DNA of 12,066 nt, from IMG/VR virus record IMGVR_UViG_2718217787_000003. The stretch is one strand, 5' to 3'. The notes beneath the pieces were generated by a model. That model searched no databases, had not been told where the DNA came from, and saw only the letters and a list, made by a program, of their open reading frames with translations. The DNA is from a virus (Duplodnaviria > Heunggongvirae > Uroviricota > Caudoviricetes). Shown piece by piece: positions 1 to 6,922 of the stretch (the stretch's first letter is position 1; each line of letters starts with the position of its first letter). Made by a program: the position numbers and the translations under genes.

Positions 1-57
1 TGTGTTGTCCTGCATAGCAATGCGCCGTAATACCTTACACCACGGCGCTGATGGTGA

Positions 58-363
58 TTACTCTGGTTCTTTGGTCTTGCGGCGCTGGAGTTCTTCACGT
101 GCGACAGTGACGAGCTGCCCGATCTCCTCGGCGGCTTTGATTCCGAGTTTTTCCACCTGCGCCAGTGCATCGAGCGAAGAAACCAGGGGATTTTCTCCAC
201 TTCCTTCTGCCTGGCGCCGGGCGATCTCACCGCGTACAGCCGTAACTATAAAATTCGCTTTAGTTTCCCCTGGCTGTAGGGATGCCTCAATGCCACTCAC
301 TACTTCATGTGGAAATCTGGCATTCAGTTGCTGTGACTTATTGTTAACAGAACTCCTGGACAT
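58..363 (-). CDS. Arc/Mnt-like ribbon-helix-helix DNA-binding protein (putative repressor), 101 aa
   Basis: The ORF track gives 58..543 (-), but the first in-frame ATG with a strong SD (GGGAGGTG, 6 nt upstream on the - strand) is at 363. The N-terminus QLNARFPHEVVSGIEASL...ANFIVTAVRGEIARR resembles the Arc/Mnt RHH signature (N-x-R-x-P-x-E-V ...). It is transcribed divergently from the rightward operon. Family assignment is by motif recognition only. Confidence 0.6.
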   Translation of the reverse strand: MSRSSVNNKSQQLNARFPHEVVSGIEASLQPGETKANFIVTAVRGEIARRQAEGSGENPLVSSLDALAQVEKLGIKAAEEIGQLVTVAREELQRRKTKEPE

Positions 364-568
364 GTTTGCACCTCCCATTAATAACGGGATGCAGTGTAAT
401 ACAAAAGTGAATACCAAAAAAGACTTGAAATGGTATTCACCTAAATGTAATGTGAATACCACAAGTGCTGATACATGCAATTCAGCAATTGAAACGACGA
501 AGCCCCGCACTGTTGGAGCAGTAACGGGGCTTCTAACCACCAACGATAACGAGAGTATCGAGGTAGCT
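364..568. promoter_or_regulatory. Divergent promoter/operator region between the RHH gene and the rightward operon
   Basis: GTGAATACC at 407-415 and 452-460, with the inverted copy GGTATTCAC at 432-440, giving two overlapping palindromic arrangements. TGTAAT also precedes both direct copies (395-400, 445-450). Candidate rightward promoter: TTGAAA (425-430), 17-nt spacer, TAATGT (448-453). Candidate leftward promoter (- strand): -35 TTGTAT (complement of 399-404), 16-nt spacer, -10 ATTAAT (377-382). A 9-bp inverted repeat GAAGCCCCG (499-507) / CGGGGCTTC (525-533) with a 17-nt spacer is also present. Promoter calls are consensus matches by eye. Confidence 0.4.
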
Positions 569-772
569 ATGAGAAATCATACCACACACCCGCAAGGGCG
601 GGACTCGCACAACCTGAATAAATACATCTGGCGTTTTATCGCCCTGAGCACTGCACAACCGCGCGTGATTACCATTGAGGCCACCAGCGAACAGGAAGCA
701 CGCCAGCAATCTCCGGCTGGCTGCGTGATGGTATTTGCCGCCCGTATTCGTCAGGGGGTGTGCCATGCTTAA
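569..772 (+). CDS. Small protein, 67 aa; hypothetical (tentatively Icd-like host cell division inhibitor family, from memory only)
   Basis: ATG at 569 with SD GAGG (560-563). This is the 3' part of track ORF 2..772, whose upstream portion is antisense to the RHH gene and the intergenic region. Stop TAA at 770-772 overlaps the next start (ATGCTTAA). Sequence MRNHTTHPQG...VITIEATSEQEARQ...VMVFAARIRQG. Confidence 0.5.
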   Translation: MRNHTTHPQGRDSHNLNKYIWRFIALSTAQPRVITIEATSEQEARQQSPAGCVMVFAARIRQGVCHA

Positions 773-1378: not shown

Positions 1379-1678
1379 ATGAAACTTAAATATTCTGGCT
1401 TAACTGCCAGCGGCAAAACTCGCACTAAATTCATGTGCGGGGATATTTACCGCGATAAGTACGGCGGCACGGTAATGATTAAGGGCGTGGAGGAACGGCG
1501 CGTAACCTACCATCGTGAAGGCTACGAATATGATTGCGTGATGCCTGTTTATCAGTTCCGGCGTGATTTTTCTCTGGTACAGGCAGCGCCCCGCAGTAAA
1601 CCAACCAGCAGGGAGAAAGCACGCGCCAATATTCAGGAAATAAAAAAGATGCTTAACGTATTCAGGGGTAAAAAATGA
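1379..1678 (+). CDS. Hypothetical basic protein, 99 aa, immediately upstream of and coupled to the replication gene
   Basis: ATG at 1379 with GGAG about 10 nt upstream. Its TGA stop overlaps the primase ATG (ATGA at 1675-1678). Lys/Arg-rich C-terminus. Confidence 0.5.
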   Translation: MKLKYSGLTASGKTRTKFMCGDIYRDKYGGTVMIKGVEERRVTYHREGYEYDCVMPVYQFRRDFSLVQAAPRSKPTSREKARANIQEIKKMLNVFRGKK

Positions 1679-3807
1679 AACTGGCACCGAACGTAAAAAA
1701 ACAGCCACGCGGAATAAAACACAAAGACACAGAGGTGATTATTTTCGCGGGTAGTGATGCGTGGGCACATGCAAAACAGTGGCAGGAGCAGGACGGCCCC
1801 GCATCCGGCGATAATGTGCCTCCTGTGTGGCTTGGGGAGCAGCAGTTATCAGAACTGGATAAGCTGCAAATTGTGCCGGAAGGCAGAAAATCCGTGCGCA
1901 TATTCAGGGCCGGACATCTTGCACCAGTAATGATCAAGGCGATTGGTCAAAAGCTGGCGGCGGCTGGTGTACAGGATGCAAATTTTTATCCTGAGGGTAT
2001 GCACGGTCAGAAGGTGGAGAACTGGCGCGAATATCTGGCCCGTGAGCGGCAGAATCTTTCTGATGGTCTGGTTATTGAGTTTCCGGTAAAGAAAAAAGAT
2101 ACCGGAAGCCATAGCGATGACGAATTAAAGCCACGCGTTGAAAGTCGCGCCGATGGTGTTTTCTGGGTAACGCCCAAAGTGGATAAGCAGTCAGGCGAAA
2201 TTATCCGGCCTGAGACGTGGTTATGTTCTCCGCTTGAACTACTGGGAACGGGGACGATCGGTAAAGAGCATTACCGCGTGATGCGCTGGAAAAAAACCGC
2301 AAACCATGAAGTCATCACAATGGCGATCCCGTGTGGTGGTATCGGCGACCGTGACGGCTGGCGGTTACTTAAAGATCACGGGCTGAACGTGACAACCAAC
2401 GGCAAATACAGGGCAATCCTGGCGGACTGGATGCAGTTAAGCGGAAGCCATGAGGAATGGCAGTTAAGCACAACAACGGGCTGGCATTTTGGCGCGTACA
2501 TCATGCCGGACGGTTCGATCATTGGTGAATCTGAAAAACCGATCCTGTTTACCGGAAAAAGCGCCGCGATTAACGGTTATTCCGTGGCGGGCACGGCGGA
2601 TGGCTGGCGCGACAGCGTGGCGCGGCTGGCTGGCGGTAATGCCTCAATGATACTGGGTGTGGCAACGTCACTGGCAGCGCCTTTAATTGGCCTTGTGGGT
2701 GCTGACGGCTTCGGGGTGCATCTTTTCGAACAGTCATCGGCAGGTAAGACCACCACGCAGAACATCGCATCAAGTTTATGGGGAGAGCCGGACGCGCAGC
2801 GGCTGACCTGGTACGGCACGGCGTTAGGTATTGCCAATGAGGCCGAGGCCCATAATGACGGGCTTTTACCACTGGATGAGATAGGCCAGGCCGGAAATGC
2901 GCGGGAAGTGTCAACGTCTGCTTATACGCTGTTTAACGGTTCAGGGAAATTGCAGGGGGCGAAGGATGGCGGCAACAGGGAGATCAAACACTGGCGAACG
3001 GTGGCAATCAGCACCGGAGAAATGGACGTTGAGACATTCCTCAAAAGTGAGGGGATAAAAGTTAAGGCGGGGCAGCTTGTCCGACTGCTTAACGTTCCGA
3101 TGGAAAAAGCCACGAAATTTCACGAATACAGCAACGGTAAGGAACATGCTGACGCGTTAAAGGATGCCTGGACAGCAAATCACGGGGCGGCGGGTCGTGA
3201 GTGGGTTAAATGGCTGGCAGGCCACCAGCAGGAGGCAAAGGACACGGTAAGGGAATGCCGCGAACGGTGGCGCAACCTGATACCGGAGAGTTACGGCGAG
3301 CAGGTCCACCGCGTGGGTGAACGTTTCGCCATACTGGAGGCCGCGCTTGTGCTTTCCGGTCATGTAACTGGCTGGGTCGTGCAGGAATGCCGCGACGCGA
3401 TACAGCATAACTTTAATGCCTGGGTGAAGGAGTTCGGCACGGGTAACAGGGAATTTAAACAGATGGTTGAACAGGCTGAGGCGTTTTTGTCGTCGTTTGG
3501 GTTTAGCCGCTACCTTCCGTACCCCAATACAGATGAGCGTGATTTACCGATTAAAGAGCTTGCCGGATACAGAAAAGGGAGCATTCGCAACGAAGATGAC
3601 GAGATGCGCTATTACACGTTCCCGCACGTGTTTGAGAGTGAGATAGCGAAGGGATTTAATCCGGCGCATTTTGCGCGTGCCCTGGATGCTGCCGGAATGC
3701 TGGAGAAGGGAAGCGATCGCCGATACAAAAAAAAGGCGCTGGGCAAGATTGGGGGTAAGCAGCATGTTTTTTACGTGCTGATGTTCCAGCCTGATGATGA
3801 AGATTAA
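1675..3807 (+). CDS. Replication initiator: primase-associated (DUF927-like) region plus P-loop NTPase (Pri-Rep type of satellites/PICIs), 710 aa
   Basis: A 2.1-kb ORF with SD AGGGG 7 nt upstream of ATG 1675. Walker A motif GVHLFEQSSAGKTT at aa 347-360 (nt about 2713-2754). Its position immediately upstream of an iteron array matches the primase-then-ori layout of P4-like satellites and PICIs. Domain names are from motif recognition, not a search. Confidence 0.85.
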   Translation: MKLAPNVKKQPRGIKHKDTEVIIFAGSDAWAHAKQWQEQDGPASGDNVPPVWLGEQQLSELDKLQIVPEGRKSVRIFRAGHLAPVMIKAIGQKLAAAGVQDANFYPEGMHGQKVENWREYLARERQNLSDGLVIEFPVKKKDTGSHSDDELKPRVESRADGVFWVTPKVDKQSGEIIRPETWLCSPLELLGTGTIGKEHYRVMRWKKTANHEVITMAIPCGGIGDRDGWRLLKDHGLNVTTNGKYRAILADWMQLSGSHEEWQLSTTTGWHFGAYIMPDGSIIGESEKPILFTGKSAAINGYSVAGTADGWRDSVARLAGGNASMILGVATSLAAPLIGLVGADGFGVHLFEQSSAGKTTTQNIASSLWGEPDAQRLTWYGTALGIANEAEAHNDGLLPLDEIGQAGNAREVSTSAYTLFNGSGKLQGAKDGGNREIKHWRTVAISTGEMDVETFLKSEGIKVKAGQLVRLLNVPMEKATKFHEYSNGKEHADALKDAWTANHGAAGREWVKWLAGHQQEAKDTVRECRERWRNLIPESYGEQVHRVGERFAILEAALVLSGHVTGWVVQECRDAIQHNFNAWVKEFGTGNREFKQMVEQAEAFLSSFGFSRYLPYPNTDERDLPIKELAGYRKGSIRNEDDEMRYYTFPHVFESEIAKGFNPAHFARALDAAGMLEKGSDRRYKKKALGKIGGKQHVFYVLMFQPDDED

Positions 3808-3829
3808 TCCCCTGTGTGAGGAAAAAAAT

Positions 3830-4145
3830 TGCGGGTTATGCGGGTTATCCTGTGTATAAGTGTATTAAGTGTATGAATATAAAGGAAATCAATAACCCGC
3901 ACGTAACCCGCAAAAGGGCATTTATAACCCGCAAAAGCACGATTATAACCCGCAGGCGAATAACTGAAGTAACACCGGACAGTCATGCGTAACCCGCAGA
4001 AAAAACCCCGTTTGCGGGTTATTTTGAGCGTTTTGCGGGTTACGTGGTGAGCAAATAATAAACAGGGTGTTTTGCAACATGCTGATATAAAAGGGTAAAA
4101 AATGGTTAGCACGCTAAGATAACCCAATAACCCGCATAACCCGCA
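3830..4145. repeat. Iteron-type origin of replication
   Basis: Seven direct copies of TAACCCGCA (3893-3901, 3904-3912, 3925-3933, 3946-3954, 3990-3998, 4128-4136, 4137-4145) and four inverted copies TGCGGGTTA (3830-3838, 3839-3847, 4013-4021, 4034-4042), with a degenerate copy at 4120-4127. Three GTGTAT-containing repeats with roughly 9-10 bp spacing at 3852-3880. A (TA)n AT-rich tract lies just downstream at 4153-4170. No credible ORF on the + strand here. Confidence 0.8.
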
Positions 4146-4179
4146 CATGTTTCTATATATATATAAATTGAGGTGGCAA

Positions 4180-5444: not shown

Positions 5445-5468
5445 AGCCGGAGCAATCCGGCTTTTTGT
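5445..5468 (+). terminator. Rho-independent terminator after the PerC-like gene
   Basis: Stem AGCCGGA (5445-5451), loop GCAA, stem TCCGGCT (5456-5462), then TTTTGT (5463-5468). Confidence 0.6.
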
Positions 5469-5635: not shown

Positions 5636-5725
5636 ACGATCGGTGCGATTGCTGATTTCCTTATGAAAAACGGTTGAGTGTTTGCCGCGTCCTGGAGTTC
5701 CTTACTTAACTTCAGGACTTTTTTT

Positions 5726-6892: not shown

Positions 6893-6922
6893 GAAGGGGC
6901 TAAAAAGCCCCTTCTCTGTTTT
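6893..6922 (+). terminator. Terminator or attenuator hairpin just after the capsid gene
   Basis: Stem GAAGGGGC (6893-6900), loop TAAAAA, stem GCCCCTTC (6907-6914), then TCTGTTTT (6915-6922). Confidence 0.55.

Follow-up and report, generated by a model that had tools for sequence, protein, structure and literature searches.

Among described regulatory systems, the one closest in logic to the locus studied here is the immI region of phage P22, with Mnt and Arc acting at Pant. In both cases a small gene for a ribbon-helix-helix (RHH) repressor (a predicted one here) diverges from an operon, and the operator lies over the core promoter of that operon. Staphylococcus aureus pathogenicity islands (SaPIs), with Stl, and Gram-positive phage-inducible chromosomal islands (PICIs), with Rpr, also have a satellite regulator at the divergence point before the replication module, and there as here allelic diversity suggests element-specific control. 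For Gram-negative PICIs, AlpA has been described as an activator and the global repressor as unclear; an activator in place of a repressor was called "a mystery" (PMC6092414). We analyzed the 12,066 nucleotides of IMG/VR record IMGVR_UViG_2718217787_000003 (the window), which is a capsid-forming PICI of Escherichia coli O157:H7 and a variant of EcCIEDL933. Near its left end, a minus-strand ylcI-like gene faces the replication genes across a cluster of short repeats. Judging from the sequence, the ylcI-like protein is likely to be an autoregulated repressor of the operon that starts with an icd-like gene and includes the primase gene, acting through sites matched to the protein.

The repeat is a 10-mer, GTGAATACCA at 407-416 and 452-461, with its reverse complement TGGTATTCAC at 431-440. 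These three exact copies are the only ones in the whole window, and all lie within 55 bp. When the interval 364-568 was shuffled with preservation of dinucleotides, some 10-mer was present at least three times (on either strand) in 9 of 20,000 shuffles. The pattern TGGTATTCAC-N9-13-GTGAATACCA was found in 10 of 2.9 million viral contigs, and in 9 of these 10 it adjoins a 94-100% identical copy of the 58-363 gene. Apart from one chance-like match, the same 2.9 million contigs contained no operator that could serve as a helper-phage target. The repeats and the elements around them are as follows.

58-363, minus strand: ylcI-like gene, 101 amino acids, annotated by RefSeq as YlcI/YnfO family protein
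370-375, minus strand: Shine-Dalgarno sequence GGAGGT of the ylcI-like gene, 6 nt before the ATG
385-393, plus strand: site 1, a degenerate half-site CGGGATGCA that agrees with TGGTATTCA in 6 of 9 positions; L011, L022, L015 and L016 (related loci carry L numbers) have a good site 1 at this position
401 to 396, minus strand: putative -10 element of the leftward (ylcI) promoter, TATTAC; in relatives, this position between sites 1 and 2 is occupied by TATACT, TATATT or TATTGT
407-416, plus strand: site 2, GTGAATACCA
425-430, plus strand: -35 element of the rightward promoter P_R, TTGAAA
431-440, plus strand: site 3, TGGTATTCAC, abutting the -35 element and inside the 17-nt spacer
448-453, plus strand: -10 element of P_R, TAATGT, with the consensus TAAnnT in relatives and a predicted transcription start near 460
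452-461, plus strand: site 4, GTGAATACCA, overlapping the 3' end of the -10 element and the predicted start
569-772, plus strand: icd-like gene, the first of the rightward operon (NCBIfam NF033153, E 1.4e-19)

The four sites alternate in orientation, with centers approximately 21-24 bp apart. A preliminary description of this DNA had placed the repeats correctly, each of them being one base longer than given there. It had combined them into two overlapping palindromes that cover the -35 and -10 elements of both a leftward and a rightward promoter. The repeats themselves stood, but the fourth site known from relatives suggests two operators rather than two palindromes with a common arm. The overlap was confirmed for P_R, a promoter of the sigma-70 type (TTGAAA-17-TAATGT, with a spacer of 17 nt), with site 3 adjoining the -35 element and site 4 overlapping the -10 element. 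On the leftward side only a -10-like element was found and no -35 element was recognized, so that the leftward promoter is a weak candidate.

The arrangement is not specific to the window. Approximately 25 related loci, including EcCICFT073 and the EcCIEDL933-type island, have one common rigid layout. These loci came from E. coli islands at several integration sites, from EcCICFT073, from other genera (8 loci, obtained in a scan of genome contigs), from contigs with chosen alleles, and from operator-bearing viral contigs. Gene order is the same in all of them: int, alpA, zero to two small minus-strand genes and ylcI (minus strand), followed by the icd-like, DUF4222 and primase/helicase genes (plus strand). 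In 17 loci (Escherichia, Enterobacter, Xenorhabdus, Photorhabdus, Phytobacter and metagenomes), the intergenic regions could be aligned without a gap over the whole stretch that begins at the ylcI start codon and includes the -35 element, the 17-nt spacer and the -10 element. TTGACA, TTGACG or TTGAAA is found near-invariantly 61 nt from the ylcI start, followed after 17 nt by TAAnnT. The repeats have offsets of about 26(+), 47(-), 72(+) and 92(-). Repeat 3 starts at the base after the -35 element, repeat 4 overlaps the last bases of the -10 element and the predicted start, and repeats 1 and 2 flank a conserved (T)ATACA(C)AAAAA, whose minus strand gives TATACT, TATATT or TATTAC. As far as layout goes, a divergent gene for a predicted RHH repressor with its operator over the opposing core promoter, as in P22 immI, is therefore present in all 17 loci. 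The first 568 bases of the window were matched in 1291 of 5426 complete E. coli genomes, in many of them only by the conserved flanks of the module.

Some islands have small genes after ylcI on the same strand (L014 1875-2048, L003 3827-4000, L012 2283-2492, L025 10243-10416); the window has none. One such small gene is Arc-like (PHROG 228, E 5e-7), and its C-terminal RKELQQRGIEPKG is common to some long YlcI alleles.

While the positions of the sites are fixed, their sequence is not. We distinguish at least ten repeat types. The repeat sequence varies with the predicted DNA-reading strand of the ylcI-like protein, and each type is present in three to four copies at the fixed positions. The following pairs of strand and repeat were found.

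KSQQ[LI]NAR[FV] with TGGTATTCAC and small variants: the window, L012, Phytobacter L011 and metagenome L022, with proteins 51-57% identical
KSQSLTARI with TGTAAG(A/C)C: E. coli and Enterobacter
KSQLTTVRV with TGTGTTTCA: E. coli, Xenorhabdus and Photorhabdus, with the sites kept and the spacer freely variable
KSKQISIRI with TGTGATTCA: L016
KSQVKNVRI and RSQMKNIRF with GGTGTGTA: L005 and L018
KSQALAARV with GTGCAACA / GTGAAAAC: L020
KSAKKNIRF (short form) with TGTGCGCACA: EDL933-type island
KSQTVAARV (short form) with GTGTTCAACAC: L026 and L027
KSQALKARV (short form) with GTGGGCCACAC: EcCICFT073

Matches to the 9-mer of site 4 averaged 2.34 per regulatory region within the same strand type versus 0.12 between types. 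Two pairs of loci separate the contributions of the neighboring genes. L012 and L027 have an identical AlpA protein, integration (att) site and downstream small gene, and differ in ylcI allele and repeat. Conversely, L001 and L003 differ in int and alpA, and have identical ylcI genes and repeats. Because of these two comparisons, we conclude that the repeats track ylcI, and not alpA or int.

Sequence comparison delimits a mosaic specificity cassette at about 241-495, which contains the codons for residues ~1-40 of the ylcI-like protein, the four sites, both promoters and the first hairpin of the leader. Over 1-240, the identity to other alleles is 83-100% (L013) or 73-100% (L015). It falls to 33-66% over 241-480 and is 60-70% in the 481-510 bin, before 73-100% is reached again from 511 onwards. 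The Megablast match breaks at ~245-252 and at ~491. The N-terminus of ylcI is the sole allele-specific coding sequence within the mosaic block. The data support the interpretation that the repeats behave as cognate operators of the ylcI-like protein, and the earlier proposal that the gene faces the replication operon across its own operators gains from the at least ten allele-specific types that follow the predicted strand at fixed positions.

The ylcI-like protein can be divided as follows.

Residues ~9-52: predicted RHH domain, with strand KSQQLNARF, helix A (19-28), turn G32-E33-T34 and helix B (35-54)
Residues 59-98: long helix, after which comes a basic tail

The protein belongs to the YlcI/YnfO family (NCBIfam NF041551; 60.8 bits versus a cutoff of 30, E 9.6e-17, residues 9-50) and to PHROGs 6522 and 949, both of unknown function. 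Pfam DUF3950 (PF13132) did not match the window protein at E<=1; the short allele of the EDL933-type island and a distant relative passed it with 28.3 and 28.4 bits versus the gathering score of 25. The succession of an alternating strand (QQLNARF), a proline, a helix, a G-E-T turn and a second helix is RHH-like. In particular, helix B starts with a G-x-[ST] turn (G32-E33-T34), and a proline (P18) directly follows the strand. P18 and E33 do not vary among 31 aligned homologues, and the turn reads GE[ST]. Residues 9-35 (strand and helix A) are variable, followed by a conserved FIVTAxRGEIARRQ (helix B) and a conserved C-terminal region. An AlphaFold2 (AF2) monomer (pLDDT 75) has helices at 19-28, 35-54 and 59-98.

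In profile comparisons with hhalign, residues 8-30 were placed on residues 5-27 of Arc, so that Q12/N14/R16/P18 fall on Arc Q9/N11/R13/P15, the base-contacting positions of that repressor (E 0.0039, probability 8.6%). The comparison with Mnt gave E 0.046. The best structural matches of the N-terminal domain, weak ones, are RHH domains of type II antitoxins, and Pfam PSK_trans_fac matched the window protein with 17.5 bits (threshold 28.3) and 20 of the 31 homologues weakly. Other searches contributed little. With CopG and with the small Arc-like neighbor protein, hhalign aligned the C-terminal segment alone. An exhaustive search with the N-terminal domain returned only 30 cluster representatives, none bridging to a canonical RHH family of Pfam, and no RHH protein was matched among PDB sequences by phmmer or profile searches. 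What these PDB searches did return, for the C-terminal segment, were weak matches of the helix-hairpin-helix kind (DNA polymerase beta and Hef), which we regard as a lead only. Against 50,697 phage records, tblastn with the protein found no match and blastn with 364-780 found one trivial match. From the sequence pattern and the model, it is likely, but not proven, that the N-terminus is an RHH DNA-binding domain.

The alleles occur in two lengths, and the form of the sites differs between them. In short alleles (59-65 aa), helix B runs directly into the basic tail RRKAKEQE, and the sites are self-palindromic. Long alleles (~101 aa, including that of the window) have a 42-residue insert between helix B and the tail, and asymmetric sites arranged as inverted pairs. 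AF2 models the insert with high confidence as one long helix. The weak matches to helix-hairpin-helix motifs, the invariant G74, and the resemblance of TVAREELQRRK to the end of helix B, TAVRGEIARRQ, suggest a helix-Gly-helix instead of a straight helix for this part (residues ~56-101, window 58-240) and an origin of the insert through internal duplication. The insert may be an oligomerization segment, with a tetramer bridging the site pair, as in Mnt or TraM. This agrees with the previously suggested binding as dimers of dimers, which fits the paired sites. A metagenomic homologue, P0135 (122 aa), has the N-terminal domain twice in tandem on a single chain and could be a natural single-chain "dimer" for structural work; its AF2 model (pLDDT 57) is unusable.

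Together, these observations are consistent with the following mechanism. Dimers of the ylcI-like protein would recognize the 10-bp sites TGGTATTCAC/GTGAATACCA through strand residues ~11-17 (QQLNARF). On sites 3 and 4 they would exclude RNA polymerase from P_R, which is predicted to drive the icd-like gene, the small ORFs, the DUF4222 gene and the primase gene, and the early/replication operon would stay off. Sites 1 and 2 flank the leftward -10-like element and would provide autoregulation. In long alleles the C-terminal helical insert probably joins two dimers to a tetramer across a site pair, while short alleles without the insert would use self-palindromic sites. Swapping of the strand-plus-operator block (~241-495) as a cassette would generate many "immunity" types. 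Derepression would probably involve the activator AlpA. One route, which is speculation, would be alpA transcription that reads rightward, antisense through the ylcI-like gene, into the operon. Such read-through could occur since no strong terminator was found on the plus strand between the two genes (the terminator scan of this interval gave a single weak candidate, L001 13840-13864), and it would reconcile a local repressor with the published AlpA requirement (PMC6092414).

Several points speak against a repressor of this kind. Concerning the protein, the preliminary description had looked to a profile or structure search for confirmation of the RHH fold. The pattern and the weak profile and structural matches agree with that fold, but no curated RHH family was matched above its threshold, a Foldseek search of PDB and BFVD returned nothing significant, and the AF2 monomer has no visible strand, with low confidence in region 8-17, as expected of a monomer model. 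Concerning the DNA, site 1 is degenerate in the window allele. P_R of the window matches only 8 of 12 consensus positions, and a strict sigma-70 scan of 1-1000 called no promoter; because of this result, P_R was assigned by positional conservation in relatives and not by score. Furthermore, the strand codons and the repeats lie within ~200 bp, and their co-variation may partly reflect inheritance as one block. We favor a cognate protein-site pair over pure block inheritance because each allele has its own repeated motif and because the same pairing is found in three divergent lineages. Finally, published work on the prototype islands shows induction by way of AlpA and assigns the ylcI-like gene no phenotype (PMC6092414).

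Regulation may have a second layer downstream of P_R, where the leader of the icd-like gene is structured.

462-491, plus strand: first leader stem-loop (CAAGTGCTGA / TCAGCAATTG), of allele-variable sequence, with a stem-loop at this place in most relatives
499-533, plus strand: conserved two-tier stem-loop GAAGCCCCG-C-ACTG-TTGGAG-CAGT-AA-CGGGGCTTC, followed by the invariant tail TAACCAC at 534-540
584 to 576, minus strand: speculative candidate for an extended -10 element, TGGTATGAT, with the geometry of P22 Psar; it overlaps conserved His-Thr codons, so that its conservation is not independent

The element at 499-533 is solid. RNAalifold predicts 9 pairs for it, 5 of them with compensatory changes, and a covariance model finds EcCICFT073 and other PICIs with E-values from 1e-7 to 1e-13. 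The leader RNA from the promoter to the start of the icd-like gene has a folding energy of -37.6 kcal/mol (z = -4.3). The stem-loop and its invariant TCTAACCAC tail are found in the icd-like leader of all related islands. In Rfam, nothing scored above any gathering score, and there was no C4, CI or isrK RNA.

The hairpin could instead be read on the minus strand, as the terminator of an antisense RNA of ~75 nt (~570 to ~493) that covers the ribosome-binding site of the icd-like gene, comparable to sar of P22. It would be an addition to repression by the ylcI-like protein, and we consider it rather unlikely. The resemblance is detailed. The hairpin between arc and ant of P22 has the same outer stem GAAGCCC/GGGCTTC and inner stem ACTG/CAGT, and lies 32 nt before ant, compared with 35 nt before the icd-like start here. 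It was also the sole P22 match of the reciprocal model (11.2 bits). The minus-strand tail GTCGTTTCA is similar to the sar tail AACTTTA, TGGTATGAT occupies the equivalent place of Psar, and the stem has the compensatory changes mentioned above. However, the Rfam sar family (RF00262) matched with 16.8 bits versus the 43 needed (E 0.43), and the scores of both searches are far under the family threshold, with E-values that are not significant. Only the terminator hairpin is matched and not the sar body, the U-tract is weak, and the -10-like motif lies over the conserved His-Thr codons. The flanks AAACGAC and TCTAACCAC score far better on the plus strand, and an element of the leader RNA fits equally well.

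A reading that departs further from repression of the operon is that the ylcI protein binds the repeats and regulates only itself and, in other islands, the downstream small genes, as an autoregulator of the antitoxin-like or accessory-gene kind, with the rightward operon driven solely by AlpA-dependent transcription from upstream. This would agree with the antitoxin domains among the best structural matches, with the one or two small same-strand genes after ylcI in several islands, with the weak P_R of the window, and with the AlpA requirement for induction (PMC6092414). We nevertheless consider it improbable. In the 17 aligned loci, the two best-conserved sites are at the rightward -35 and -10 elements and not at the leftward promoter. 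In addition, the window has no downstream partner gene beside the ylcI-like gene, and no toxin family was detected in the small genes that follow ylcI in other islands.

P22 Mnt represses Pant and stimulates Pmnt, and a role of the ylcI protein as activator or dual regulator of P_R, for example from site 2 at about -48, has to be considered as well. Site 2 lies upstream of the -35 element, where activators act, and the poor -10 element is typical of activator-dependent promoters. Sites 3 and 4, in contrast, are in the core promoter and over the start, which is the classic position for repression, and the -35 element is near consensus in most relatives. We assign activation a similarly low probability.

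Binding of the repeats by some other factor (AlpA, a helper-phage or a host protein), with the adjacent gene unrelated, is highly improbable: binding by the ylcI protein is a prediction from sequence and AlpA is a DNA-binding regulator encoded ~350 bp away, but the repeats change with the ylcI allele at constant AlpA (L012/L027), stay constant while AlpA and int change (L001/L003), and share the mosaic block with the ylcI N-terminus alone as allele-specific coding sequence.

Repression of the operon by the ylcI-like protein being the preferred reading, its resemblance to P22 immI extends beyond the divergent layout. The extra C-terminal segment, predicted to serve oligomerization, recalls Mnt, the strand motif Q-x-N-x-R-x-P is identical to that of Arc (Q9/N11/R13/P15), and both systems have a GC-rich two-tier hairpin of similar sequence ~32-35 nt before the start of the next gene. 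There are also clear differences. No sequence homology was detected past the strand and helix A (hhalign probability 1-9%). The island operon begins with an icd-like gene, as in P1 immI, and has neither an arc-like first gene nor ant. Four 10-mers with centers 21-24 bp apart bracket the -10 element here, whereas the half-sites of P22 are adjacent, one turn apart. Finally, the island is a satellite and not a phage, and its sar match is far under threshold.

The preliminary description had likened the regulator to Stl, as a master repressor of replication and packaging, for which the sequence gave no support. The fold of Stl is helix-turn-helix, a class other than the RHH fold predicted here. 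Genes int and alpA are on the plus strand, like the replication genes and unlike the 58-363 gene; in the Stl and Rpr elements, int lies beside the regulator gene and shares its direction, with the xis/replication genes running the other way. Unlike those elements, Gram-negative islands need the activator AlpA for induction (PMC6092414; bioRxiv 10.1101/2022.09.08.507074). A single replication-and-packaging operon is not supported either. Three terminator-like hairpins with T-runs occur on the plus strand, two of them (5445-5462 and 5689-5718) in the interval from the PerC-like gene to the capsid gene and the third (6893-6914) past the capsid gene. Since the first two precede the capsid gene, control of the packaging genes by P_R is not supported; the sequence suggests separate transcription units for early and packaging genes, and only a unit from the icd-like gene to the primase, SSB and PerC genes is plausibly under P_R.

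Other described systems share single features with the locus. TraM of F-like plasmids combines an RHH N-terminal domain with C-terminal tetramerization helices on spaced sbm sites; unlike the ylcI-like protein, it is a relaxosome accessory factor, and it has no sequence similarity and another site geometry. Type II antitoxins (ParD, TacA, MazE6/7, Rv0298, VapB/PSK_trans_fac) provide the best structural or weak profile matches and autoregulate through palindromic operators, as predicted here. They differ in that the window has no toxin partner, that the operators cover the promoter of the opposing operon, and that the C-terminal segment has no detected similarity to a toxin-binding tail. YlcI (DLP12) and YnfO (Qin) of E. 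coli K-12, associated with DUF3950, have the same N-terminal domain family (NF041551), but are found beside cos/nohD at the right end of lambdoid prophages and are without the 42-residue insert. With this different context and a layout that does not match, K-12 ylcI was rejected as an instance of the same module. The RNA-based immunity systems of P1 (immI, c4 RNA-icd-ant) and P4 (CI RNA) have a structured leader before an icd-like first gene, as is the case here; they differ in the C4, CI or isrK RNA that found no match in the window, where control is apparently exerted by a protein repressor.

The assignment of the window to the capsid-forming PICIs is based on its chromosomal counterparts. 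Two E. coli O157 chromosomes match bases 1-1400 with 100% identity, and the window is 100% identical to an O157:H7 chromosome; in strain MB41-1, it lies in an island inserted between rcnR and thiM. The RefSeq annotation of this identical locus has the gene set of a capsid-forming PICI (int, alpA, primase and its own packaging genes, with no tail or lysis genes), the same set as described for EcCIEDL933 (bioRxiv 10.1101/2022.09.08.507074). The sole difference between the island and the common O157 version is the region studied here. The genes are arranged as follows.

MB41-1 island, left part: int, a hypothetical gene, an AlpA-type helix-turn-helix gene, then the ylcI-like gene on the opposite strand
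MB41-1 island, middle: icd-like gene, small ORFs, DUF4222, DUF927 primase, SSB, PerC
MB41-1 island, right part: capsid, protease, portal, two connector genes, HNH, TerS, TerL
1379-1678, plus strand: DUF4222 gene of the window (Pfam), with small ORFs between the icd-like gene and this gene
1675-3807, plus strand: DUF927 primase gene of the window (Pfam and RefSeq annotation)

In family searches, the ORFs at 569-1678 gave no Arc, Ant, KilAC or Bro domain. Directly 3' of the primase gene, at 3829-4148, are approximately 13 copies of TAACCCGCA in both orientations, iterons that are almost certainly the replication origin of the island. The 10-mer repeats had also been considered as replication iterons, and were rejected since the iterons sit elsewhere, and as a plasmid-type partition site, which was rejected for an island without a ParA-type gene.

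Further features were noted around the ylcI-like gene. In L001, a GC-rich hairpin (GCAA loop, then T7) lies at 13456-13490 (~520 bp left of the window) and ends directly at the alpA start codon; as an intrinsic terminator just before the activator gene, it might make alpA expression depend on read-through or antitermination. On the minus strand, a terminator-like site ~300 nt past the ylcI-like gene (L001 13762 to 13743) would end a leftward transcript before alpA. RefSeq lists a pseudogene, "Icd-like protein, missing C-terminus", that reaches from alpA as far as the 3' end of ylcI, which it enters in antisense orientation (window 1-175, L001 13726-14175), and the first ~55-97 bases of the window are kept in many islands regardless of which ylcI allele is present. 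It may be that an older alpA-icd unit acquired the ylcI-operator block by insertion. Two mechanically called ORFs, 58-543 on the minus strand (161 aa, TTG start) and 2-772 on the plus strand (256 aa), overlap the genuine 101-aa gene, and database entry P0001 (173 aa) is apparently such an over-extended call of the ylcI-like gene.

In the searchable literature we found no description of a role for the ylcI-like gene; YlcI, YnfO and DUF3950 appear in gene lists only. In CFT073, the ylcI and icd-like genes carry the late-added locus tags C_RS30120 and C_RS30125, and we infer that the annotation behind the original work probably lacked both. In a later preprint, the gene that follows alpA is listed as variable, with no known function (10.1101/2025.02.11.637232). 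In both model islands, the ylcI module sits exactly at this variable region after alpA, under locus tags that were added late. An RHH repressor-operator switch is a known kind of system; what it contributes here is a concrete, testable candidate for the unrecognized repressor of Gram-negative PICIs. As a broader proposal, which is tentative but a serious possibility, the immunity repressors so far missing from Gram-negative PICIs, EcCICFT073 and EcCIEDL933 among them, would be YlcI-type RHH proteins, which would fall into at least ten heteroimmune, cassette-swapped classes. During induction they would be overridden either by antisense transcription read through from AlpA-driven expression or by a factor of the helper phage that targets the C-terminal domain, and a sar-like RNA may add a layer on the icd-like gene.

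The matched pairs of strand and site are a natural series for studies of RHH recognition and for orthogonal repressors. If the ylcI-like protein represses the replication operon, YlcI/YnfO, DUF3950 and PHROGs 949 and 6522 would gain a function, the variable region after alpA would be explained as an immunity-type specificity cassette, and the model of satellite induction would change.

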